Source: Candidatus Komeilibacteria bacterium (GTDB lineage: Bacteria > Patescibacteriota > Patescibacteriia > UBA1558). Taken from it: DNA of 64,000 nt. The notes under the pieces are model-generated. The model had not been told where the DNA came from. It saw only the letters and a program-made list of their open reading frames with translations, and searched no databases. Made by a program: the position numbers and the translations under genes. The DNA lies in assembly GCA_048538235.1 (NCBI GenBank), contig JBLYPX010000001.1:264013-328012 (forward strand). Direction: 5' to 3'. Positions 7,267 through 61,699 of the stretch are shown here, piece after piece (within the stretch, counting starts at the first letter, position 1; every line of letters begins with the position of its first letter).

Positions 7267-8880
7267 ATGCAGTCAAAAGAAACACTATATAATAAGTACA
7301 GACCTTCAACATTTGCTGATGTGGTTAACCAAAATCACATTAAGATTACGCTGCAAAATGAGGTGTCTAATAATAAGCTAGCTCACGCCTATATTTTTAA
7401 TGGACCAAGAGGTATTGGTAAAACAACCATTGCTAGACTACTTGCTAAAGTTGTTAACTGTGAAAATAGAAAAGAAGGGGAGTCAGAACCTTGTAACAAA
7501 TGCGAAGCGTGTAAAGAAGTAGATAGTGGAAAATCTTTATCTATGGTTGAAATAGATGCTGCTTCACAGACTAAGGTTGATCAAACAAGGGAAAATATTA
7601 TTGCTGCCTCTAGAATTTCTGCAAGCTCAGGTAAGACAAAGGTGTTTATTATAGATGAAGTACATATGTTATCTACAGCTTCATTTAATGCCTTACTTAA
7701 AACACTAGAAGAACCACCAGCTAAGGTTCTTTTTATTTTAGCTACTACTGAAATACATAAGGTACCAGAAACAATTATTTCACGTTGCCAGAGATTTGAT
7801 TACCATCGTTTATCTGTTACAGATCTTACTTCCTGGATGGAAGATATTTGTAAACAAGAAAAACGTGAAGTAAGTAAAGATGTTTTGCAAGCAATTGCTA
7901 AACAAGCAGATGGTGGTGCTAGAGATGCTTTAAGTATATTAGGCCAGGTTTTAACTTTATCTGAAGAAAAAATTAACTTTGATCATGCTTCACTAGTATT
8001 ACCAAGATCAGATATAAGGATAGTTTCAGATTTAACAGATTTTGTTATTAAAAGATCAGCAGCTGATGGTATTAATCTATTAAACAAATCTCTAATGGAA
8101 GGAGTTGATCTAAATCAATTAACAATGGATTGGATAGATTATCTACGTCAGTTATTATTATTTAAACTAGCCGCAGATAATAAGATACTACAGAATAATT
8201 TTGACAAAGAAGTGCAGAAAAAAATGACTTCTCAAACAGAACTTGTCTCTTCAGATCGTATAGTATTTATGTTAGATACATTATTACTTAAGTTTCAGCA
8301 GATTAAATTATCTTCTATACCACATCTGCCAATTGAATTAGCTATTGTAATAATGTGTGGAGAAGGGTTAGATATACCCCAGCCTCCTAAACAGGAAAAA
8401 CCAAAACAAGATAATATAGATCAACCAAAACAAGAAAAGCCTAAACAGGAAATACCTGAGATTAAGAGTGAAAAAGTGCCTGATCCGCCACCAGCTGTTA
8501 AGTCTAATTTAAAGCTAGACGATATCCAGCCGAAATGGCTGGACATTTTAATTGCATTGAAGGAATATAACCATTCTTTATCTGCTTTAATGAAAGTAGC
8601 AAGACCAGTTAGTTTTGAAAACAATATTTTAACATTTGGTTTTGAATATTCTTTTCATAGTGAAGTTTTAGCAGATGCTAATAAAAGACACGCCTTAGAA
8701 GAAATTATTAGTAAGCATTTAGGTGAAAAAATATCTATTGAAGGTATAGTTGATGAAGATTATAATAAAAGAAATGTTTGGCAAGTATTTATTGAAGAAG
8801 AAGCACCTATTGAAGAAAAACAAGAAGAAAAGCCAATTGAGCAAGACGTAGAGGTTGACGTCGCGGCTGCTTTTGGTTAA
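7267..8880 (+). CDS. dnaX: DNA polymerase III subunit gamma/tau
   Basis: N-terminal 'YRPSTFADVVNQ...', P-loop 'GPRGIGKTT', clamp-loader AAA+ boxes. Low-complexity PKQEKPKQ repeats in the linker. Confidence 0.92.
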   Translation: MQSKETLYNKYRPSTFADVVNQNHIKITLQNEVSNNKLAHAYIFNGPRGIGKTTIARLLAKVVNCENRKEGESEPCNKCEACKEVDSGKSLSMVEIDAASQTKVDQTRENIIAASRISASSGKTKVFIIDEVHMLSTASFNALLKTLEEPPAKVLFILATTEIHKVPETIISRCQRFDYHRLSVTDLTSWMEDICKQEKREVSKDVLQAIAKQADGGARDALSILGQVLTLSEEKINFDHASLVLPRSDIRIVSDLTDFVIKRSAADGINLLNKSLMEGVDLNQLTMDWIDYLRQLLLFKLAADNKILQNNFDKEVQKKMTSQTELVSSDRIVFMLDTLLLKFQQIKLSSIPHLPIELAIVIMCGEGLDIPQPPKQEKPKQDNIDQPKQEKPKQEIPEIKSEKVPDPPPAVKSNLKLDDIQPKWLDILIALKEYNHSLSALMKVARPVSFENNILTFGFEYSFHSEVLADANKRHALEEIISKHLGEKISIEGIVDEDYNKRNVWQVFIEEEAPIEEKQEEKPIEQDVEVDVAAAFG

Positions 8881-8892
8881 TATATTTGTTGA

Positions 8893-8966
8893 TCGGAGGT
8901 CGTCTAATGGTAGGACAGCTGGTTCTGGTCCAGCCAATTGGGGTTCGAATCCCTGCCTCCGAACCA
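8893..8966 (+). tRNA. tRNA-Gln (anticodon CTG), CCA encoded
   Basis: 7-bp acceptor TCGGAGG/CCTCCGA; anticodon stem GCTGG/CCAGC with loop TTCTGGT; T-arm GGGGTTCGAATCCC; 3' ACCA. Confidence 0.85.
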
Positions 8967-9059
8967 ACACAGTGTACAGTTAGTGTGACCTGTTCGTATT
9001 AGATATACGTAACGCTTTGCAAAAAAGCATCTTGATTTTGAGATGTTTTTTATTTAGTA

Positions 9060-9088
9060 TTGACACAATTTAGAAAATAGTGTAGTAT
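9060..9088 (+). promoter_or_regulatory. sigma70-like promoter upstream of the J-domain gene
   Basis: TTGACA, 17-nt spacer, TAGTAT. An SD (AAGGGG) precedes ATG 9135. Confidence 0.5.
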
Positions 9089-9134
9089 TATTTGATATCA
9101 TTTTTGAACTTTAACAGAAAGAAGGGGTGATAAT

Positions 9135-9623
9135 ATGTCTACTTATTATGAAATACTAGGTGTCAATCATACTGCCTCTTCTAAAGAAATAAAACAAGCA
9201 TTTAGGAGAAAGGCACACAAGTGTCATCCAGACAAGCCTGATGGAAGTGATGAGAAGTTTCGGATACTTAACGAAGCCTATCAGACACTTTTTGATAATG
9301 CAAAGAGAAAGGCATACGATGAGATGTTGCATACCTCTTCTGCATCAAAAGGTCGTAGAGTAAAAGAAGAGAGGAAAGAAAAAGAGGGCAGAGATAAAAC
9401 TTCTTGGCAACACGGCTCACCTAATAAAGAACATGGAAGTAGTGGCAAACAAAGACGAGCCAAATCATGGCATGAGCCTGAGGTTGATACTAATCAAAAG
9501 GTAAATCTTCCCCATGGACGTGAGTATTGTCATGAATGTAATGGATTTGGATTCAATATGGTAGCTGGCAATGTTCACTTTGGTTGCATGAGGTGCGAAA
9601 GTACCGGGCTAGAACCCATTTAA
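9135..9623 (+). CDS. small J-domain (DnaJ-like) protein with a C-terminal Cys-rich zinc-finger-like tail
   Basis: 'YYEILGV...HPDKP' J-domain with HPD motif; C-terminal 'CHECNGFGF...GCMRCESTG'. Confidence 0.85.
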   Translation: MSTYYEILGVNHTASSKEIKQAFRRKAHKCHPDKPDGSDEKFRILNEAYQTLFDNAKRKAYDEMLHTSSASKGRRVKEERKEKEGRDKTSWQHGSPNKEHGSSGKQRRAKSWHEPEVDTNQKVNLPHGREYCHECNGFGFNMVAGNVHFGCMRCESTGLEPI

Positions 9624-27507: not shown

Positions 27508-27897
27508 TTAAGTGAATGTTGCGCGATTCTTGTTGGCGTATTCACGGGTAGAGACGGTTTGAACGTAGGATGAAGCGATGTAGGAAATTTCGATGGCCGA
27601 TATGGCACATTCACCTCCATTTCCTGAGTACGCCAGCAGAGGGATCATCATGGTATTGTTGCCAGGATACAGGCTTGTAACATTTTCAAAAGATGACAGG
27701 CTGGAGACAATTTGAACGGCCGGAATGGCACTGACCTCCTGAGAAATTTTCTCCGCATTGCTGGTTTCCGCGACAACGATGTCTTGCTTTACAAAGCTCG
27801 CTGCAGACTCCGCAGGTGACGCTTTGTTATTACCGAAAAGACTTCCGGTAATCAGAAGCAAGGGTAGAACAAGAGCTGTGATTAATTTCTTAATCAT
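27508..27897 (-). CDS. secreted hypothetical protein in a GC-elevated islet
   Basis: Start placed at the second ATG, preceded by GGAGG plus 6 nt. Signal peptide 'MIKKLITALVLPLLLITGSLFG'. Visibly higher G+C than the flanks. Confidence 0.55.
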   Translation of the reverse strand: MIKKLITALVLPLLLITGSLFGNNKASPAESAASFVKQDIVVAETSNAEKISQEVSAIPAVQIVSSLSSFENVTSLYPGNNTMMIPLLAYSGNGGECAISAIEISYIASSYVQTVSTREYANKNRATFT

Positions 27898-28040
27898 TTT
27901 GACCTCCATTTCTACGGTTAAAGAACAAAAAACGGTATCAATTCCGTTGTATATAGTCTAACATTATATATATTATTTTTGAAGTGGATAAATTAAAAAC
28001 CCTCTCAATATTATATTAAAAGGGTTTTTAAGTTTGAGGG

Positions 28041-28250
28041 TTAGGTTGCATGTTCATATTTTTCCTCTTTTATTTTGCAGAAAGGACAGGGGATAGGTTG
28101 GGCTTTTATATACCCAACTCCTTTGCAGTGATTACAGAGTCTATTGTTAATAGCTCTATAACCACAACACTTTGGACAGCGCGATTGGTCAGTATATATG
28201 CCAGTATTTCGGCACATATCGCAGTATAGGGGTTTTGCTATTTTATGCAT
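28041..28250 (-). CDS. small Cys-rich (multi-CxxC) zinc-ribbon-like protein
   Basis: 'MHKIAKPLYCDMC...CPKCCGY...CNHCKG...CPFCK'. Start chosen at the ATG preceded by AAGGAGG plus 5 nt. Confidence 0.5.
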   Translation of the reverse strand: MHKIAKPLYCDMCRNTGIYTDQSRCPKCCGYRAINNRLCNHCKGVGYIKAQPIPCPFCKIKEEKYEHAT

Positions 28251-28320
28251 TTTAACCTCCTTTCTAGCAATACCATCTGCTAATTTGAAGATAGCACTTA
28301 AATAGTATCCGGTCAAAGTG

Positions 28321-28616: not shown

Positions 28617-29150
28617 ATGCCAAAAACAAGAGAACAAAAGAAAGTAGCTATTGATGAATTAGCAGATAAAATAGTAAGAGCAAAGAGTATTATATTTACT
28701 TCATATGCTGGACTAGATGTTCCTGGTATTGAAGAATTAAGAGCAAAATTTCGTGAACAAGGTGTTGAGTATAAAGCTGGTAATAAGAATTTAATAAACA
28801 TTGCTCTAGATAATGCTAAGATTGAACATGAAGATATTACTAAATTAGAAGGAAGTATTGCAGCTGCATTTAGTACTGAAGATGAAGTTTCAGCAGCTAA
28901 GCTAGCTAAAGACTTTTCTAAAACTAATAAGAATTTAGGAATCAGAGCTGGTATTTTAAAGATCGGAGATGATTGGAAGTATTTATCTGAAGCAGAGGTT
29001 ATGAATTTAGCAAATCTACCTAGCCGTGAAGAATTATTAGCTAAGGTAGTTGGATCTATTAAGGCTCCTGTAACTGGCTTTGTAAATGTATTAGCTGGTA
29101 ATATGAGAGGCTTGGTAAACGTATTAAATGCGATTAAAGATACAAAGTAA
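28617..29150 (+). CDS. rplJ: 50S ribosomal protein L10
   Basis: L10 fold sequence; conserved position immediately upstream of rplL. Confidence 0.9.
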   Translation: MPKTREQKKVAIDELADKIVRAKSIIFTSYAGLDVPGIEELRAKFREQGVEYKAGNKNLINIALDNAKIEHEDITKLEGSIAAAFSTEDEVSAAKLAKDFSKTNKNLGIRAGILKIGDDWKYLSEAEVMNLANLPSREELLAKVVGSIKAPVTGFVNVLAGNMRGLVNVLNAIKDTK

Positions 29151-29191
29151 TTTGTATATTAATATATTAATAAATATTTAAGAAAAATATT

Positions 29192-29641
29192 ATGGCAGAC
29201 GAAGAAAAAAAAGTAGCTGATGCTAAAGCTGAAGAAGCTACTGAAGAAAAAAAGGACGTAGAAGTTCCTGCAAAGTTTAAGAGCTTAGTTGAAGAGATTG
29301 AAAAAATGTCAGTTCTAGATTTATCTGAATTGGTATCAATCTTAGAAGATAAGTTCGGCGTATCTAGTGCTGCACCTGTAATGGCTATGGCTGCTGGAGC
29401 CGCTGCTGGCGGTGAAGCTGCTGAAGAAAAGAGTGAATTCAATGTTGAATTGACTGGAGCAGGTGAGGCTAAGATTAATGTAATTAAAGCTATTCGTGAA
29501 ATTACAGAACTTGGTCTTAAAGAAGCAAAAGATATGGTAGATGGTGCACCAACTATGATTAAAGAAGGTGTTAAGAAAGAAGAGGCTGAAGAGATGAAGA
29601 AGAAGATTGAAGAAGCTGGTGGTACTGTTACATTGAAATAA
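29192..29641 (+). CDS. rplL: 50S ribosomal protein L7/L12 (with about 28-aa acidic/Lys-rich N-terminal extension)
   Basis: C-terminal '[27 protein letters not shown]...' and Ala/Gly hinge '[16 protein letters not shown]'. Confidence 0.9.
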
Positions 29642-39210: not shown

Positions 39211-40452
39211 ATGGAATGTGGTTTATCTTTATCGCAGGAGATTAAGCAAGAGCTGTCTCCAGAGCAGGCGCTGGAATTGAAGCTCTCTTTATCTCAGGAA
39301 TTAAGCCTGGACATGATAGAGCTTTTGGATGAATCAGATGACAATCCAGAGGCTACATTAGATATTGTTTTGCAGCAAGTTTGTAAAGCAATAGATAGTG
39401 AAGAGTTGCGAGAGGCTTTTCAGACAGTTTTTGGTCTCAATCTTCTTAGGGAGATTTTAATCAAAGATCATTTGGAATTATCTGTTTATTCAGAGAGTTC
39501 TATTCGTAGTACTGTTGTCAATTTTTTTGCGAAGATGTATAAGGATGGTTTTCCAGACTTATCGTCTTCAGGGAATAAATTGCACGATAAAGTACCTGAA
39601 GGTCTTGTCATCAAAGTGTTTAGTCAAGGCAGGGAGCAGAGTGAGAGAGATCTTAATTTTCTTAAAGAAACATTGAAATCTCAAACCGATTACAGAGGCA
39701 CGATGGAGGCATTTAATGAGTTATCTAACGCCATAAAGATTTTTGATCAGTATTCTGTTCAGGTAGATAATATGTGCAATATCATATTACATGCCTGTCA
39801 GGTTCATAATCAAATCTTAATCAGCTTCTTTCGTGACTTGGTGATGATCAAGCAACTGAATTTTCTGTTCGCAGAAAAGATCCAGAAGAGATTTGTTAAG
39901 AAATTTCGTCAGATCAGAAGATTTGACAGTACAGATTCTCTGGCAAATCATATGCTTAACACTATCAGTGAATATGTCCTAGTGGGCATGGGCATTGTTA
40001 GTCCCAAACTGTTTAGCTTAAGAGTCTTCCAGCAGGATCCTCAATATTTAAAAGATATTGATGAGAAGTTGGAAAAATCTGGTTTAACAGCAAAGCAATT
40101 GCTTCAGCATTACAACCTGCAAACTACTGGTACGGTTTTCTTTCACCGCTGGCATGTACTTGGTCATAAACTGACGCGCATAACAGATAATCTTATACGT
40201 TTGTTTATGACAAAGACTGTTCGTCAATGTGCCGATGAATTATTAACAGCGCTTGACTTCGAATCTTTGATTGAAGAAATTAAAGATTTGCAAGGGCAGA
40301 AATTAAAACCGACAGATTTGGATGTTGGTATTCGTGAGTTATTGGTTAAGTCTTTTACTAAGAAAAGCTTTCTTAGGTTAATAAAAGGTAAGATCAAGAC
40401 TGACTGGTACAGACATCTAGTCATATTCCTCAGAGAAGCTCCTACAAGTTAG
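39211..40452 (+). CDS. hypothetical protein in a GC-elevated orphan gene; N-terminus resembles sigma-54 region I
   Basis: 'LSLSQEIKQELSPEQALELKLSLSQELSLDMIELLDESDDNP' resembles the RpoN region I Leu/Gln heptads. No RpoN box or HTH. Codon usage (CAG/CTG/GAG) differs from neighbours. Confidence 0.6.
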   Translation: MECGLSLSQEIKQELSPEQALELKLSLSQELSLDMIELLDESDDNPEATLDIVLQQVCKAIDSEELREAFQTVFGLNLLREILIKDHLELSVYSESSIRSTVVNFFAKMYKDGFPDLSSSGNKLHDKVPEGLVIKVFSQGREQSERDLNFLKETLKSQTDYRGTMEAFNELSNAIKIFDQYSVQVDNMCNIILHACQVHNQILISFFRDLVMIKQLNFLFAEKIQKRFVKKFRQIRRFDSTDSLANHMLNTISEYVLVGMGIVSPKLFSLRVFQQDPQYLKDIDEKLEKSGLTAKQLLQHYNLQTTGTVFFHRWHVLGHKLTRITDNLIRLFMTKTVRQCADELLTALDFESLIEEIKDLQGQKLKPTDLDVGIRELLVKSFTKKSFLRLIKGKIKTDWYRHLVIFLREAPTS

Positions 40453-47898: not shown

Positions 47899-47900
47899 TT

Positions 47901-47933
47901 TAAAACCCCTGTTAAGTTTTAACAGGGGTTTTG
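47901..47933. terminator. bidirectional terminator hairpin
   Basis: AAAACCCCTGTT-aagtttt-AACAGGGGTTTT. Confidence 0.8.
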
Positions 47934-48265
47934 CTTAAATAGGCGTTTAATTTGGCTGTGTTTTTTTCAGATAGTCTTTGAACGATAACACCACCGCATT
48001 GCTCATTACCTTCGATAAATGAGCCTACTTCTTCAAAAGCATTAAGGATACTGCGTGCATCCTCAGGAGTTGTTCCAAAGCTCTCAAAGTGTTCAATGTG
48101 AGCTGTTGAACCCTTAAGAAGAGAATTTAGTATGCGAGCACTAACTTTTTCTTGAAGTGTAGTTTCGCTCTCAAATTTCTTCAGCAGCTCTTGATAGGGA
48201 ACAGCATGTTCTCCGGTTGGTGTGAAAAATATCATAATGTTAAAGGCAGCTCGTTTTACAGACAT
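47912..48265 (-). CDS. hypothetical protein (GC-elevated islet, gene 4)
   Basis: AAGGAG plus 5 nt before the ATG. No recognisable family. Confidence 0.5.
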   Translation of the reverse strand: MSVKRAAFNIMIFFTPTGEHAVPYQELLKKFESETTLQEKVSARILNSLLKGSTAHIEHFESFGTTPEDARSILNAFEEVGSFIEGNEQCGGVIVQRLSEKNTAKLNAYLSKTPVKT

Positions 48266-48367
48266 ATTATCTCCTTGTTTCTAATGTGCTAGTTGTTTAG
48301 AGCATCTTATACTGTATTGCTAATTGTGTCAATTTTAAACCCCACTATTTCTAGCGGGGTTATTTGT

Positions 48368-48694
48368 TTACGCATTATGCGTTTCTGGTAATCCGGTAAG
48401 GATTGAGTTTGGAGCAATTGTTTTCAGCGTGATTGCAATCTCGTTCCATGCTTGAATTGTTTGATTACGCAAAACAGATTGTTCTGTATTGTCGTGAATA
48501 AACTCATTAGCCTTTACACCAGGGAAGCCTTCTTTCATTTTCCGGTTGTCAATCAAGGCCATAAGGATATTTGATTGTAAACCAGCTATCGGATTAGCTT
48601 TGGATGTAAGCGCGTACAACAAAGCTTGTAATTGCAAAATATCTTTAGATTTTGCATCAGCCTTCAACATAATAAAATCAGTTCGAACAGTCAT
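48368..48694 (-). CDS. hypothetical protein (GC-elevated islet, gene 3)
   Basis: AAGGAGA plus 4 nt before the ATG. No recognisable family. Confidence 0.5.
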   Translation of the reverse strand: MTVRTDFIMLKADAKSKDILQLQALLYALTSKANPIAGLQSNILMALIDNRKMKEGFPGVKANEFIHDNTEQSVLRNQTIQAWNEIAITLKTIAPNSILTGLPETHNA

Positions 48695-48777
48695 TTATTC
48701 TCCTTTTTTGAAATGAACAATAATTTGGGTTGACTCAGTATACATTAATTATTGTTAAGTGTCAATGGTAAATGAAA

Positions 48778-48804
48778 GTCCCCAGCTACTTTCGTAGTGG
48801 GGAC
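48778..48804 (-). terminator. terminator-like hairpin downstream of the Zn-ribbon gene
   Basis: GTCCCCAGCTAC-ttt-CGTAGTGGGGAC imperfect palindrome. Confidence 0.45.
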
Positions 48805-48815
48805 TTGAGTTTTCA

Positions 48816-49058
48816 TCACATTATGTGATGACAGTGTGGACACTCATCATCTTTTTGGAACTGAGTGTTGTCCTCATTGGCAATGCCACAGTTCGGACAA
48901 TGAACACCATAAGTGGTGGGATGTACATGGGTTCTGTTTGCAGCCATACGGAGATCGAGTTCAGTTATTGAATGGCCATTCAGACAGACATCGCCAACCT
49001 GAAATGATGAACCACCTTTTTTAGCAACACCGCAACCGGTGCGTGGACAATGAAGCAT
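48816..49058 (-). CDS. small Cys/His-rich zinc-ribbon protein (two CPxCG motifs) (GC-elevated islet, gene 2)
   Basis: 'HCPRTGCG' ... 'HCPNCG' ... 'CPHCHH'. AAGGAGG plus 4 nt before the ATG. Confidence 0.55.
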   Translation of the reverse strand: MLHCPRTGCGVAKKGGSSFQVGDVCLNGHSITELDLRMAANRTHVHPTTYGVHCPNCGIANEDNTQFQKDDECPHCHHIM

Positions 49059-49231
49059 ATAGCCTCCTTGGTTTGTGATTTTATTTATAGATGTTAATTT
49101 ACGTTTAATACTTACTATGATAGCATACTTTTAGTATTTTGTCAAGAGGTAAAATATGGTAACAAAAAACCCCTTAACTGTGGTATAAAACCAGTTAAGG
49201 GGCAATGATTCCATGTTTCAATTTATGTCTC

Positions 49232-49597
49232 CTAGCTTAGCATTATTCTTAATGCTGCTTCTGGGTCTAGAAATAACATTAGCTCTGCAACAGCTGACTG
49301 TTGACGCTCTAATGTAACTCCTGGTTGCCTTTCATTAAATAGTTCAGTAAATGAAATAGTATTGTGTTGTGAAATATTTCCATTTATACTGAAACTTTGA
49401 TACGGTGTAGCGGACTTACATAATGCAGACTGGAATGATTCCCAGCCAGATTGAGCAGTTGTATCCAAATCAGCAATCAATACAAAACCAGCAGATTTTA
49501 GTATAGCTGACTGAAATAAATTCCAGCCATCTATAGCTTGTCCATCAAGTTCATGTATCGGTAAAAGAAATGGATCAGAGCCTACCAATTGTAACAT
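49232..49597 (-). CDS. hypothetical protein (GC-elevated islet, gene 1)
   Basis: GGAGGTG plus 5 nt before the ATG. No recognisable family. Confidence 0.5.
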   Translation of the reverse strand: MLQLVGSDPFLLPIHELDGQAIDGWNLFQSAILKSAGFVLIADLDTTAQSGWESFQSALCKSATPYQSFSINGNISQHNTISFTELFNERQPGVTLERQQSAVAELMLFLDPEAALRIMLS

Positions 49598-49682
49598 GAT
49601 TACACCTCCATTTATTAAGGTTCATTACCTCCTAATATAATTATAGTACTTTTTTTATGTTTGTGCTACGATAATTAAAGAT

Positions 49683-53379: not shown

Positions 53380-53395
53380 TATATTGTTAAAAAGA

Positions 53396-53428
53396 AAAAC
53401 CGCTGATGTTAATCAACGGTTTTTTTAA
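53396..53428. terminator. bidirectional terminator hairpin
   Basis: AAAAACCG-ctgatgttaatcaa-CGGTTTTTTT. Confidence 0.75.
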
Positions 53429-53928: not shown

Positions 53929-54043
53929 ATTAACCTCCTTAAGTTTTTAATGTCCAGCACTCAATTTAACCATGTAGAAGTTTTGTTGTCAATAAATAGG
54001 TAAAAGTGGTATAATAATCGTACTAAATCTTTATGAAAAGCCT

Positions 54044-60728: not shown

Positions 60729-60737
60729 CTTCGGGAA
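60714..60737 (+). other. stem-loop without U-tract (TTCCCGAAG-aattaa-CTTCGGGAA)
   Basis: Perfect 9-bp hairpin overlapping the P1 stop, immediately followed by the 51-bp repeat. Confidence 0.7.
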
Positions 60738-60740
60738 CCT

Positions 60741-60791
60741 CCCAAGTCTAGTACTTAGGTAATAGATTTAGGAAGTAATTTGTACATTGAA
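60741..60791 (+). repeat. 51-bp direct repeat, copy 1 (leader of P2)
   Basis: Identical to 61080-61130: cccaagtctagtacttaggtaatagatttaggaagtaatttgtacattgaa. Confidence 0.9.
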
Positions 60792-60812
60792 CGTAAATAG
60801 AAAGGATTTGTT

Positions 60813-61037
60813 ATGAAAACAAATTTGCAAGTAGCACTTGTTGGCTGCATAGCAGTAATTATCGGCTGTGTTATTGCCACAGTTAATGGTATCAAGTATT
60901 TGGAGGATAGTTCCTGGAAAATGCCATCAGGTGATGCAGGTGTTGTCACGATAGCAATGTTGTTGGGATTGATCATGATCTTCTATGGAATATTTAAACA
61001 GCTTCGTGAGGAGAATAAAACTCACGACATTAACTAG
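60813..61037 (+). CDS. small two-TM peptide P2 (74 aa)
   Basis: SD AAAGGA 8 nt before the ATG; start about 21 nt after the repeat. Two TM helices and a charged C-terminus. Confidence 0.55.
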   Translation: MKTNLQVALVGCIAVIIGCVIATVNGIKYLEDSSWKMPSGDAGVVTIAMLLGLIMIFYGIFKQLREENKTHDIN

Positions 61038-61048
61038 TTCCTGTTCTT

Positions 61049-61075
61049 CCCAGAAACAGATAATCGTATTCTGGG
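61049..61075 (+). other. stem-loop without U-tract (CCCAGAA...TTCTGGG)
   Basis: 7-bp stem with 13-nt loop, directly followed by repeat copy 2. Confidence 0.6.
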
Positions 61076-61079
61076 ACTC

Positions 61080-61130
61080 CCCAAGTCTAGTACTTAGGTA
61101 ATAGATTTAGGAAGTAATTTGTACATTGAA
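61080..61130 (+). repeat. 51-bp direct repeat, copy 2 (leader of P3)
   Basis: Identical to 60741-60791. Confidence 0.9.
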
Positions 61131-61150
61131 TTTAAATATAAGAGGTAAGA

Positions 61151-61315
61151 GATGAAACGTTTAATGATTTTTTTGATGATTTTGGCAATTGGTGCTCTGT
61201 ATGTCGGTTATGACCATTTAATGGGTCAGTTAACGAAAGAAATGCTTTTCATTGATGTTTTAGCAAGCTTGATTGCTGCGACAGTAATATCTCTTACCGC
61301 AAAGGTAGAAAAGTA
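61151..61315 (+). CDS. small two-TM peptide P3 (54 aa; below the ORF-track cutoff)
   Basis: ATG 61151 preceded by AAGAGG. Translates to MKRLMIFLMILAIGALYVGYDHLMGQLTKEMLFIDVLASLIAATVISLTAKVEK. A 9-bp hairpin (61322-61349) follows. Confidence 0.45.
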
Positions 61316-61503
61316 ATCTATCCCTAGCTGGTTATCATAACAGCTAGGGGAACATCTTAAATATATTAAATGTTTAGTATATTTAAAATGTTTTTTGAAA
61401 ATAGATGTAGACTTTGTAAATTTGGAGATTGGAGTCGGATATAATTTAAAACATATAAATATTCATATCCATCGCTCTAGTCTCCAGTTTTACAAAGTTT
61501 AAC

Positions 61504-61602
61504 TTAATTCTAATTGTAGTAGGGTTATAATAATAATGAATTCGGTATAGTCCTCGTGGCGAAAATTGAGTTTGTGCATAGCCCTATTACAATTAGAATT
61601 AA
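61504..61602 (+). repeat. 21-bp inverted repeat flanking a 57-nt loop
   Basis: Arms TTAATTCTAATTGTAGTAGGG (61504-61524) and CCCTATTACAATTAGAATTAA (61582-61602). A perfect RNA duplex with one G-U pair. MITE-like or processing hairpin. Confidence 0.8.
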
Positions 61603-61607
61603 TATAT

Positions 61608-61688
61608 GGCAGTGCAGTCTGAAAGAATGCCAGGGGCAGCCTGAATAAGGTTAGACTGTAGACGGAGGTTCGATTCCTTCCATTGCCG
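61608..61688 (+). ncRNA. tRNA-like element (T-arm plus acceptor-like stem) of uncertain identity; not a canonical tRNA
   Basis: T-arm GGAGG-TTCGATT-CCTTC (61664-61680). GGCAGTG (61608-61614) can pair with CATTGCC (61681-61687). No anticodon arm could be folded. A weak terminator follows at 61700-61728. Confidence 0.35.
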
Positions 61689-61699
61689 CAACAGCAAAT

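Follow-up and report, generated by a model that had tools for sequence, protein, structure and literature searches.

An islet of four small genes between CYTH and rarA in Candidatus Komeilibacteria as a probable ancient accessory locus

Small hypothetical proteins abound in Patescibacteria (CPR) genomes, with few criteria by which to prioritise them. In a 64,000-nucleotide stretch of a Candidatus Komeilibacteria genome, the window, four small ORFs (g1–g4) lie together on the minus strand between CYTH and rarA. A preliminary description had noted their raised G+C content and strong ribosome-binding sites and had proposed a horizontally acquired functional module, with a Firmicutes-like donor as one guess. 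The locus raises the question of whether the islet is such a recent import and a single module, or something older, and what its products might do.

Composition and predicted expression units

All four ORFs were found as described (Table 1). The G+C content of the islet is 37.5%, more than in any other segment of its size in the 64 kb (mean for the window 32.3 ± 1.8%); the rise noticed by eye is therefore real but smaller than the 40–45% against about 30% first suggested. Values for the individual genes are 36.9% (g1), 45.7% (g2), 37.6% (g3) and 38.7% (g4). In tetranucleotide distance, too, the islet exceeds every other part of the window (0.357 versus 0.225 ± 0.029; z approximately 4.6), and synonymous-codon likelihoods relative to core genes gave z scores of −1.35, −3.5, −4.0 and −3.1 for g1 to g4, so that the islet deviates in G+C, codon usage and tetranucleotides alike. 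Its composition, codon usage and ribosome-binding sites had been called foreign-looking, and each does differ from the rest of the genome.

Table 1. Coordinates of the islet genes and predicted expression signals in the window
Feature	Position	Strand	Remarks
Promoter of g1	49640..49669	-	GTAGCA-18-TATAAT; consensus prediction
SD of g1	49603..49609	-	GGAGGTG, 5 nt 5' of ATG
g1	49232..49597	-	121 aa, acidic soluble protein, pI 4.35; in 5/5 lineages
Terminator T1	49163..49203	-	predicted 12-bp stem + U-run; dG -24, z -4.8
Promoter P2	49117..49145	-	predicted TTGACA-17-TGcTATCAT, extended -10; same hexamers in 5/5 lineages
SD of g2	49063..49069	-	AAGGAGG
g2	48816..49058	-	80 aa, two predicted zinc sites (CPxxGCG...CxNGH; CxxCG...CPxC); in 4/5 lineages
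Terminator T2	48770..48806	-	predicted; dG -20.4, z -5.5
Promoter P3	48737..48765	-	predicted TTGACA-17-TATACT; kept in 5/5 lineages, TATAGT in L083
SD of g3	48700..48705	-	AAGGAG
g3	48368..48694	-	108 aa, soluble protein, invariant W83-N84, C-terminal LPETHNA motif; in 5/5 lineages
Terminator T3	48335..48361	-	predicted; dG -15.9, z -5.2
Promoter P4	48304..48332	-	TTGACA-17-TAAGAT; consensus prediction
SD of g4	48271..48276	-	AAGGAG
g4	47912..48265	-	117 aa, soluble protein, motif AF(E/Q)E(I/V)G; clear orthologue in L082 (47%)
Terminator T4	47902..47932	both	predicted perfect 14-bp hairpin; overlaps g4 stop

No integrase or transposase was found among the neighbouring genes, no tRNA within 9 kb and no flanking direct repeats or att sites at the islet borders; the first three absences had been reported before, and that of direct repeats is added here. 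The islet has no Rfam match. In all lineages the flanks are core cellular genes (MacB-type ABC transporter, CYTH and RarA), and none of the lineages has a phage gene within ±10 kb.

The islet is predicted to be four monocistronic units, each with a promoter, 5'UTR, Shine-Dalgarno sequence (SD) and ORF and ending in a hairpin terminator. Promoters were predicted from consensus matches and terminators from folding energy, and conservation backs both: the predicted promoter hexamers, SDs and terminators are retained in 5/5 lineages while the stem sequences have changed, as in T1, where base pairing is kept in relatives with a different stem. Each inter-ORF gap (102–173 nt) contains a terminator followed by a promoter, and P2–P4 (49145, 48765 and 48332) are the best three promoter matches in 10 kb, one per gap. 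The hairpins of the four genes have folding energies of −16 to −24 kcal/mol (z −4.8 to −5.5). The 85-nt intergenic region between rarA and g1 is nearly invariant across three genomes, and the predicted −10 element of the g1 promoter lies there inside a 10-bp palindrome, TATAATTATA, which also yields a plus-strand TATAAT 41 nt upstream of the rarA ATG. At the other end, T4 begins 4 nt after the CYTH stop codon and overlaps that of g4, so it probably serves both strands; its stem encodes the C-terminal KTPVKT of g4. Of the two hairpins previously thought to bracket the block, at 47901–47933 (bidirectional terminator) and 48778–48804, the second does not: it is the predicted g2 terminator, and every gene has a hairpin of its own. 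A single promoter, freedom from internal terminators and short or overlapping junctions, the marks of an operon, were not found, and the idea of a single functional module gives way to four units with their own promoters and terminators. An integron cassette array was also considered and rejected: there is no integrase nearby, every cassette comes with a promoter, and the hairpins are GC stems with U-runs, that is, terminators.

A canonical SD at 4–5 nt spacing precedes every islet gene, as had been observed, and a second conserved AGGAGGT lies upstream of g1 at 49633..49627. SD matches of at least 5 nt occur in 4/4 islet genes but in only 3/59 core genes of the 64-kb window (Fisher p = 6e-5). 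Among all small odd genes of the window 8/9 have an SD, and the corresponding counts in the related lineage L081 are 6/6 versus 1/22. Of the 59 core genes, 22 have a TATAAT 3–12 nt upstream of the ATG, compared with 12% of random positions. Within core coding sequences GGAGG is depleted (13 observed versus 34.7 expected; z −4.3), and control motifs show no depletion. By these motif counts, the islet falls into a putative genome-wide class of small orphan genes led by an SD, while the rest of the genome lacks SDs and avoids them. No 16S gene is present in the window or in any fetched locus, a search of 1.3 Mb of such loci for 16S 3' ends gave none, and the argument for SD function in the islet consists of motif conservation and the avoidance of GGAGG inside genes. 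About half of Parcubacteria reportedly lack an anti-SD (PMC9297842). Elsewhere in the genome, further SD-led small genes are scattered beside core genes.

Four small proteins outside recognised families

The four proteins had been said to match no recognisable family, and searches of Pfam, PHROGs, NCBIfam and PADLOC bear this out, with no significant match for any of them. PADLOC returned only sub-significant zinc-ribbon-like matches to g2 (E ≥ 0.012) and no known anti-phage defence system, and PDB profile searches with the islet proteins returned nothing. All four are predicted to be soluble, with no transmembrane segment.

The g1 protein has a conserved N terminus (MLQLxxSDPFLLPIHELDG) and a dN/dS of 0.39–0.41; its AF2 model is too poor for use (pLDDT 52). 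It carries an internal repeat, GWxxFQS..KS, which is duplicated only in some lineages. The repeat was considered as a sign of a RiPP precursor, a candidate that was dropped because the neighbourhood encodes no modifying enzymes and two lineages have only one copy of the repeat.

The g2 protein is predicted to be a two-site zinc-ribbon. The putative ligands C4, C9, C25 and H29 of one site and C54, C57, C73 and C76 of the other are invariant in 4 lineages, which upholds the earlier suggestion of a Cys/His-rich zinc-ribbon; the trailing CHH of the CPHCHH once counted with it is not conserved. The top Pfam match, Zn_Ribbon_1, covers residues 53–67 with 20.2 bits, below the gathering threshold of 25. 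With the small zinc-ribbon proteins (Zn_Ribbon_1 and relatives) g2 shares the CxxC...CxxC knuckle pairs; it differs in its sub-threshold score and in the unusual N-terminal C-x4-C...C-x3-H site, and no named family or function fits. Matches of g2 to designed SAKe repeat proteins in the PDB profile search contained no single significant stretch and were discarded.

For g3, AF2 gave a confident model (pLDDT 87) of a compact alpha/beta fold with the order beta-alpha-alpha-beta-alpha-beta. Foldseek comparison of this model with the PDB and BFVD produced noise only (E > 0.4, TM ≤ 0.42); AcrIIC4, Acb2 and Rsd were among the weak helical matches and are not taken as evidence. The g4 protein is very divergent in L081 and L089 and absent in L083. 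Alignment of the g3 and g4 profiles with hhalign, as a check for paralogy, gave an E value of 0.011 at a probability of 4%, and the g1 profile matched neither.

Distribution, divergence and turnover

Exhaustive phmmer comparison with 1.84 billion representative proteins recovered just 9 relatives. Eight of them are encoded in the CYTH–rarA slot, and the ninth, P0007, is on a 656-nt contig without context. A word-indexed protein search with the concatenated proteins and a cassette profile returned nothing and so missed existing relatives, being insensitive for such short proteins. No homologues were found outside the clade, and sequence searches of phages, plasmids, INPHARED and IMG/VR gave no match to the islet. 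A metagenome scan recovered only the known FLOH01 contig and L093, the latter a false positive: a high-GC, phage-like contig with its match antisense within a terminase gene.

The arrangement RarA <-> [g1 g2 g3 g4] -> CYTH-FtsX-FtsX-ABC recurs in L081, L082, L083-88, L089 and L094: at least five related Patescibacteria lineages share both slot and gene order. The genes thus do have homologues in related genomes, yet these form a syntenic, fast-evolving cassette and are not scattered core genes. Across lineages g1 and g3 are never separated. Slot 2 is variable: in L082, g2 is swapped for an unrelated 81-aa ORF placed exactly between the conserved 5'UTR and terminator, and the same replacement was independently observed in L094. 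L089 carries an extra ORF. In two distant Patescibacteria (L045 and L057), CYTH and rarA are directly adjacent and co-oriented, approximately 40 nt apart; judged from these two genomes, the islet looks like an insertion between them.

Synonymous divergence in the islet (dS 0.74–0.97) is close to that of the flanks (0.86–1.23), dS being near saturation for the more distant pairs. Between this genome and its closest relative, L082, the share of identical-amino-acid codons that differ is 0.32–0.45 in the islet and 0.37 in the flanks. Measured against the closest relative, the islet and its flanks are equally diverged at synonymous sites, so the islet was probably inherited vertically from the ancestor of the clade. 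This, with the slot and order shared by at least five lineages, contradicts the recent horizontal acquisition first proposed, and no donor, Firmicutes-like or other, was found among the 1.84 billion representatives, phages or plasmids. Nonsynonymous divergence is 6–14 times higher in the islet than in the flanks (dN 0.21–0.45 versus 0.03–0.09), with dN/dS of 0.21–0.48 versus 0.034–0.07. Since dN/dS is below 1, the ORFs are most readily read as real proteins under purifying selection that evolve approximately 10 times faster than neighbouring genes; over five lineages, dN/dS < 1 fits both positive selection at some sites and relaxed constraint. Synonymous-site conservation in the first 20 codons was not significant.

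DNA identity between this genome and L081 is 0.58 in islet coding sequences and 0.80 in core coding sequences, and 0.75 in islet intergenic regions compared with 0.72 in other intergenic regions. The notion of a hyper-conserved scaffold was abandoned on these values: it is the ORFs that diverged. In the same pair, the share of differing identical-amino-acid codons is raised in g2 (0.65, p = 0.01) and g3 (0.60, p = 0.005) compared with the flank (0.38), whereas g1 (0.33) matches the flank. The identity matrices of the islet genes are incongruent, and a recombination breakpoint falls between g1 and g2. On these comparisons, g2–g4 in L081 were probably exchanged between lineages.

That the ORFs are spurious and the transcripts non-coding RNAs is as good as refuted by dN/dS and frame conservation. 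Short transcripts with a promoter and terminator each would suit such RNAs, but ORFs of 80–121 codons in 37% G+C DNA, each after an optimally spaced SD, with frames intact in 5 lineages, would not. The dN/dS of 0.2–0.5 indicates constrained amino acid sequence, and the invariant Cys/His ligands of g2, the confidently predicted g3 fold and the lack of an Rfam match all speak against it.

Possible origin and role of the islet

With moderate confidence, we favour the reading that the islet is an ancient, clade-specific accessory locus made of autonomous units, whose rapidly evolving, exchangeable ORFs belong to a separate SD-led class and have a conflict-type role that we infer. The islet would already have occupied its place between CYTH and rarA in the ancestor shared by at least five related lineages. 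Each unit would comprise a near-consensus sigma-70-type promoter, a 30–60-nt 5'UTR, a strong SD, a small ORF and an intrinsic terminator, a regulatory scaffold probably under purifying selection at about the ordinary level for the genome. The ORFs would sometimes be exchanged between lineages or lost, or give way to unrelated ORFs within one and the same promoter/terminator socket. The core genome appears to have almost no SDs, to be largely leaderless and to avoid GGAGG within genes; therefore, the SD-led islet and similar small orphan genes may form a separate, probably high-capacity expression class. The atypical, non-optimised codons of the islet stand against high capacity, as does the fact that highly expressed proteins usually evolve slowly. 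The products appear to be small, soluble cytoplasmic proteins without enzymatic signatures and may bind or modulate partners in a rapidly changing interaction, such as a phage, host or mobile-element conflict, which would explain the fast evolution, allele exchange and cassette turnover. Small soluble binding proteins in such a fast-changing role are our best guess, drawn from evolutionary rate and turnover.

Variable accessory hotspots with conserved borders, such as anti-CRISPR/anti-defence loci and the P2/P4 defence hotspots, offer one likeness: a fixed slot, conserved flanking or regulatory sequence, and small, fast-diverging orphan cargo that is swapped, sometimes for unrelated genes. In contrast to these, the islet has no mobile element, no marker gene (aca or integrase) and no known defence or anti-defence family, and its cargo is mostly homologous across lineages, not freely shuffled. 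Phage morons offer another. In the Juhala/Hendrix concept as quoted in PMC4378225, a moron is a single coding region with its own promoter and terminator, lying between genes that are adjacent in relatives and differing from them in composition. The islet resembles them in its single small ORF per unit, with a predicted sigma-70-type promoter and factor-independent terminator, in its apparent insertion between genes adjacent in relatives (in L045 and L057), and in its deviant composition and orphan-like, variable content. It differs in lying on a cellular chromosome with core-gene flanks, not in a phage or prophage, in having four units in tandem, and in being ancient and vertically inherited instead of recently gained, with no phage homologues.

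Several other explanations were weighed. A recent island from a distant, for example Firmicutes-like, donor is largely refuted and now very improbable. It would account for the most deviant composition, tetranucleotides and codons in the window, for an SD style foreign to the core genome and for the adjacency of CYTH and rarA in two other Patescibacteria; it is at odds with the shared slot and order, the flank-like synonymous divergence from the closest relative, the confinement of the known relatives to the slot save one without context, the lack of phage or plasmid matches, and borders free of integrase, tRNA and direct repeats. Of the usual marks of a recent genomic island, only atypical composition was found; mobility genes, tRNA and repeats were absent, and the islet is neither younger than its flanks nor missing from relatives. 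A domesticated remnant, four morons left by an ancient phage or mobile element and kept by the host, is another candidate, one we regard as rather unlikely. Each unit fits the quoted definition, universal strong signals (consensus −35/−10, strong SD) are typical of mobile DNA, and phage accessory regions often contain small orphan proteins and zinc-ribbons. Against a remnant stand the phage-free ±10 kb in every lineage, the lack of INPHARED or IMG/VR sequence matches, of a BFVD structural match for g3 and of att-like repeats, and a divergence too great for origin to be inferred.

Two further explanations concern function. The four proteins could work as one system, for instance in defence or anti-defence or as a regulatory complex, kept together though separately transcribed. 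We doubt this: the gene order conserved in five lineages, the constant pairing of g1 with g3 and the similar promoters, which suggest co-regulation, are what it predicts, but vertical inheritance alone predicts conserved order, the units do not share promoters or terminators, an unrelated protein can take the place of g2 and g4 can disappear while the remainder is kept, recombination has a breakpoint between g1 and g2, and PADLOC found no match. Somewhat easier to entertain, while still improbable, is that these are ordinary lineage-specific small proteins, for example of stress or growth phase, under relaxed constraint and SD-led for the sake of leadered, regulatable mRNAs, with no conflict involved. 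Consistent with this are dN/dS below 1 throughout, the lack of any defence or phage signature, the SD-led small genes scattered next to core genes and the precedent of Bacteroidia, in which the rare SD-led gene is the housekeeping rpsU (PMC9976891). Non-homologous replacement in a conserved socket and allele exchange between lineages would not be expected of such proteins, nor would a compositional deviance that persisted over a dS of approximately 1.

In Bacteroidia, SD-exceptional rpsU and anti-SD sequestration have been described (PMC7797042, PMC9976891, PMC13000453). The likeness is that of a genome almost without SDs in which a tiny gene set keeps strong, conserved ones, which suggests a distinct translation regime for those genes. 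The Bacteroidia exception encodes a ribosomal protein and takes part in an autoregulatory loop, whereas here it would be a set of fast-evolving small orphan genes, and core genes here look leaderless, unlike the A-rich or Kozak-like starts of that comparison. A bolder and rather doubtful extension is that SDs are reserved for a class of small, fast-evolving orphan genes in conserved promoter/SD/terminator sockets whose ORFs can be exchanged by recombination. Such genes would be a separately translated regulon, served, for example, by ribosomes in a state that exposes the anti-SD, as with Bacteroidia rpsU, and would let the cell deploy rapidly changing proteins in its dealings with phages or with the host cell of the episymbiont.

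Even if the class is not general, the islet contributes four protein families that are new; for one of them, g3, the fold is predicted with confidence and is unmatched among the solved or viral structures searched. Its signature of consensus promoter, strong SD and private terminator appears to set a class of small proteins apart from the core genome, and such an SD-led class is relevant to reports that many Parcubacteria have lost the anti-SD. Should it hold generally, SD use would mark a specialised translation class in a second, independent case besides Bacteroidia rpsU, and the signature would help in practice to find the genes that uncultured episymbionts use in interaction or conflict.

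Four separately equipped genes between CYTH and rarA

The four minus-strand ORFs of the preliminary description, g1–g4, were recovered at their exact positions (table) in a window that is 32.3% G+C overall and carries nearly all of its genes on the plus strand. The windowed G+C, tetranucleotide and codon checks were run, and the islet deviates in all three. Its G+C content (37.5%) is the highest among all 1722-nt windows of the 64 kb (mean 32.3 ± 1.8%); the elevation noted earlier is therefore real, but the 40–45% estimated by eye was too high and is reached only by g2 (45.7%). The tetranucleotide distance of the islet is the largest in the window (0.357 versus 0.225 ± 0.029), and in synonymous codon choice three of its genes rank no higher than the 1st percentile among core chunks matched for size. 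No tRNA lies at the borders, as previously observed (both tRNAs of the window lie >9 kb from the islet), and no direct repeats were found bordering the block.

Coordinates of the islet genes and of other features in the window
Feature	Position	Strand	Details
g1	49597..49232	-	121-aa ORF
g2	49058..48816	-	80-aa ORF
g3	48694..48368	-	108-aa ORF
g4	48265..47912	-	117-aa ORF
69-aa protein, four CxxC motifs	28250..28041	-	8-nt SD; strong terminator hairpin
133-aa protein, signal-peptide-like N-terminus, putatively secreted	27909..27508	-	46% G+C; strong terminator hairpin
413-aa protein	39211-40452		GGGAGG SD; raised GC3 (0.37); no Pfam family
SD-led two-gene unit, 75 + 88 aa	53928..53433	-	TTGACA promoter at 53992; terminator 53424..53395
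89-nt direct repeat, 84% identical	60730-60818 and 61069-61157		Just upstream of two small genes
Membrane-like protein, 74 aa	60813-61037		Follows first repeat copy
Membrane-like protein, about 55 aa	61153-61317		Follows second repeat copy
Two long hairpins	61409-61500, 61501-61605		Within 61405-61690
tRNA-like element	61608-61688		Follows the hairpins

The block is not an operon because every inter-ORF gap holds its own terminator-like hairpin and promoter. In these gaps of 102–173 nt, a GC-rich hairpin is followed by a T-run and then directly by a near-consensus promoter. The predicted promoters 5' of g2 (TTGACA-17-TGcTATCAT), g3 (TTGACA-17-TATACT) and g4 (TTGACA-17-TAAGAT) are the top three promoter-like matches within the surrounding 10 kb. 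The four islet hairpins (-24, -20.4, -15.9 and -18.7 kcal/mol) have z scores between -4.8 and -5.5, with no equally good fold among 200 shuffles. The hairpin at 48778-48804, previously taken to bracket the block, is actually the predicted terminator of g2. The other, at 47902-47932, was correctly described as bidirectional: it overlaps the g4 stop codon, lies 4 nt past the CYTH stop and so serves both strands. Its stem also encodes the C-terminal KTPVKT of g4.

The predicted g1 promoter lies within an 85-nt region (49598-49682) common to g1 and the divergent rarA. The g1 TATAAT sits inside a 10-bp palindrome, TATAATTATA, which also supplies the TATAAT for rarA on the opposite strand, with each -10 box 41–42 nt from its ATG. 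Three genomes share this region almost unchanged, including another conserved AGGAGGT that lies farther upstream than the g1 Shine-Dalgarno (SD) site; the short upstream ORF that it would serve is unconserved, being out of frame here, in frame in the closest relative, L082, and beginning with ACG for ATG in the related locus L081. An SD of the AAGGAG(G) or GGAGGTG type precedes all four ORFs, 4–5 nt 5' of the ATG, in agreement with the first reading. Promoter hexamers, SD and terminator hairpin are kept in each slot in all five lineages, and the terminator stems change in sequence with pairing preserved. At the level of sequence, the reading of the block as four autonomous expression units is strongly supported.

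None of the four proteins matched a family in Pfam, PHROG, NCBIfam or PADLOC, just as none had been recognized at first sight; profile searches of the PDB returned nothing credible, and an Rfam search of the islet gave no family. They constitute new protein families of narrow distribution, all members of which are predicted to be soluble and to lack both signal peptides and segments resembling membrane helices. The g1 protein is acidic (pI 4.3–4.7 in four of five lineages), with a conserved N-terminal MLQLxxSDPFLLPIHELDG and a GWxxFQS..KS motif duplicated only in the window's genome, L081 and L082; its AF2 model is unreliable (pLDDT 52). The proposed zinc-ribbon identity of g2 holds insofar as zinc-ribbon is the closest match and eight ligands are invariant, but the score falls under the Pfam threshold. 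These ligands form two predicted sites: C4, C9, C25 and H29 (CPxxGCG...CxNGH) and C54, C57, C73 and C76 (CxxCG...CPxC). For g3, five sequences gave a confident predicted model (pLDDT 86.9, pTM 0.80) of beta-alpha-alpha-beta-alpha-beta topology, with no significant structural neighbors in the PDB or BFVD libraries searched. For g4, composition points to a helical protein, and the sole motif common to the lineages is AF(E/Q)E(I/V)G; profile-profile comparison gave at most a faint hint that g3 and g4 are paralogs (E 0.011, probability 4%).

Age, rate and turnover of the cassette

The best relatives of the neighboring RarA (≤68% identity) belong to Parcubacteria-group, Falkowbacteria, Kuenenbacteria and Magasanikbacteria MAGs, and no relatives of g1–g4 were found in 80 loci from these. 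This places the window in a member of the Patescibacteria (CPR) that lacks a close species representative. A word-indexed search of 5.8 billion proteins also returned none. Exhaustive phmmer against 1.84 billion cluster representatives recovered nine relatives, covering all four proteins. The genes for eight of these occupy this very slot, pointing away from rarA and toward CYTH-FtsX-FtsX-ABC; the contig that carries the ninth, P0007, is 656 nt long and gives no gene context. The cassette ORFs are 124, 105, 103 and 129 aa in L081 (GCA_900089805.1); 124, 81, 108 and 117 aa, with start codons corrected, in L082 (JGI 3300009451); the same set in L094, from an independent run; and 101, 82 and 106 aa in L083-L088. 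L089 has g1, g2, an extra half-ribbon ORF, g3 and a divergent g4. Gene order is identical in every lineage; the suggested search for co-occurrence revealed the same order and slot in related Patescibacteria. CYTH and rarA are directly adjacent (gap ~40 nt) in two distant Patescibacteria (L045 and L057), and genomes with RarA 63–68% identical carry unrelated genes upstream of rarA. Taken together, the shared slot and these alternative arrangements indicate that the cassette is an insertion specific to one narrow clade and was present already in the clade's ancestor.

Comparison with L082, in which the FtsX proteins are 94–95% identical, gave islet protein identities of 61%, 70% and 47%. Nei-Gojobori dS is 0.74–0.97 for islet genes and 0.86–1.23 for the flanks, and codons for identical amino acids differ at 32–45% and 37%, respectively. 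Islet dN (0.21–0.45 versus 0.03–0.09) and dN/dS (0.21–0.48 versus 0.034–0.07) are far from flank values. These divergences argue that the islet genes are as old as their surroundings and truly protein coding, with amino acid change 6–14 times faster. DNA identity to L081 is 58% for islet ORFs and 80% for core coding sequences; intergenic DNA is 75% identical within the islet and 72% in ordinary intergenic regions. The putative regulatory scaffold is thus about as conserved as usual, and what stands out is the divergence of the ORF bodies.

The cargo also turns over by exchange and replacement. In L082 and L094, the zinc-ribbon gene of slot 2 is swapped for an unrelated 81-aa Cys-free ORF, likewise an orphan, that fits precisely into the space flanked by the conserved 5'UTR and terminator; L083 has no g4. 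Synonymous divergence from L081 is flank-like for g1 (0.33 versus 0.38) and significantly higher for g2 (0.65, p = 0.01) and g3 (0.60, p = 0.005), consistent with g2 and g3 divergence older than that of the flanks. Identity matrices conflict with the flank tree: the window's g2 is 31% identical to that of L081, 48% to L083 and 49% to L089, and its g4 is 24% identical to that of L081, close to the 29% for L089. The flank-like g1, the older g2 and g3 and the incongruent matrices together show a putative recombination breakpoint between g1 and g2, with alleles exchanged among lineages of the clade. In the Guaymas-type lineage L089 (2749-3282), whose contig has an assembly gap (run of N) between g1 and g2, the slot-3 promoter drives an extra 63-aa ORF resembling the C-terminal half of the g2 zinc-ribbon (HMM E = 0.006). 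No terminator separates this ORF from the g3 gene after it, which has an SD of its own, so the slot is bicistronic.

Shine-Dalgarno sites in an SD-poor genome

The suspicion that the ribosome-binding style is foreign to this genome was borne out: all four islet genes are SD led, and core genes are almost SD free. Upstream matches to AAGGAGGTGA are no longer than 4 nt for 56 of the window's 59 core genes, whereas all four islet genes and four of five other small "odd" genes have 5–8 nt matches (Fisher p = 6e-5 and 2e-7). A TATAAT-like box ends 3–12 nt 5' of the start in 22 of the 59 core genes, compared with 12% of random positions, a probable signature of leaderless mRNAs. L081 has the same split (6/6 versus 1/22), and more distant Patescibacteria loci are likewise SD poor. 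Isolated genes with perfect AAGGAG SDs occur at the rarA loci of such distant, SD-poor genomes (L001, L004, L010 and L015), so an SD-led minority class may be widespread in the Patescibacteria group; the L004 example (8791-9300) is a 169-aa minus-strand ORF ~0.7 kb upstream of, and divergent from, rarA.

About half of Parcubacteria are reportedly without the anti-SD motif, overlapping with lineages that lack uL1 (Tsurumaki et al., PMC9297842). At 28617-29641, the uL10 and bL12 genes are not preceded by uL11 and uL1; YceG, a small membrane protein and orphan units are there instead. The organism may therefore belong to the uL1-lacking group, often without anti-SD, although uL1 could be elsewhere in the genome. 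No 16S gene was present in the window or in the relatives' loci. Two indirect findings favor SD reading by this organism's ribosome: the SDs are kept at optimal spacing in every slot and lineage, even where the ORF is swapped, and GGAGG (13 observed versus 34.7 expected, z -4.3) and AGGAGG (2 versus 15, z -3.6) are depleted inside core coding sequences. The control motifs GGTGG, GGGAG, GGAGA and CTCCT show no depletion. Use of the SD thus seems restricted to a small set of genes. A parallel has been documented for Bacteroidia, in which the anti-SD is sequestered and the sole strongly SD-led gene, rpsU, is translated by a specialized ribosome population (PMC7797042, PMC9976891 and PMC13000453).

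Several other small window genes share the islet signature. Two more orphan units lie directly upstream of rplJ (27508-28316, minus strand). The 69-aa protein has weak, sub-threshold DnaJ zinc-finger and anti-TRAP-like matches; the gene for the 133-aa protein has the most deviant codon usage of the window (z -8.9), and no SD match was found for its called start. The SD-led two-gene unit, the 75-aa product of which has a sub-threshold DUF5847 match, has a syntenic counterpart in L081 (81 + 90 aa) that is just 35% and 48% identical, against 77–93% for the neighbors, and is a probable second example of the fast-evolving class. Among the SD-led genes of odd composition, that for the 413-aa protein is a larger one; the protein opens with a Leu-, Ser-, Glu- and Gln-rich low-complexity repeat. 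Small membrane-protein genes at 60.5–61.3 kb follow the 89-nt repeats, which look like a duplicated 5' regulatory segment. With the Rfam tRNA model, the nearby tRNA-like element reaches 24.5 bits, short of the gathering score of 29, and ARAGORN makes no call; a degenerate tRNA, a tRNA-like element and an unrecognized structured RNA are all conceivable.

Moron-like units with changing cargo

The recently acquired horizontal module proposed at first gives way to a cassette of four moron-like units that is old, keeps its synteny and evolves fast. Like phage morons, the units have their own predicted promoter and terminator, are inserted between genes that are adjacent in relatives and deviate in composition; unlike morons, they are not in a phage genome, which leaves three of four defining features shared (PMC4378225). 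They would function as morons do, yet should not be classified with them. Nor is the block a recent genomic island: its composition is atypical, but it has no mobility genes, tRNA or direct repeats at its borders and is no younger than its flanks. It is likewise neither an operon nor an integron array, with no integrase in the neighborhood, and matches no known defense system in PADLOC.

Strong support from comparative sequence data attaches to an ancient, vertically inherited, clade-specific locus; to a conserved scaffold whose cargo evolves fast and is sometimes exchanged or replaced; and to SD-led translation in an SD-avoiding genome. This structural and evolutionary description is very probably correct. 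In a cell where other mRNAs would not compete for the anti-SD, consensus promoters and strong SDs would confer high or separately controlled expression capacity. The products may be small non-enzymatic binders; the speed at which they diverge, the exchange of alleles and the replacement of cassettes suggest a possible arms-race-type role involving phage, host or mobile elements. That role in conflict is tentative, and we would sooner doubt it than assert it; description and role combined in one statement are reasonably likely to hold. The units are members of a set of small, SD-led orphan genes in a CPR genome that is SD-less in other respects, and the SD/leaderless dichotomy, together with the "conserved socket, changing cargo" behavior, is both unusual and testable.
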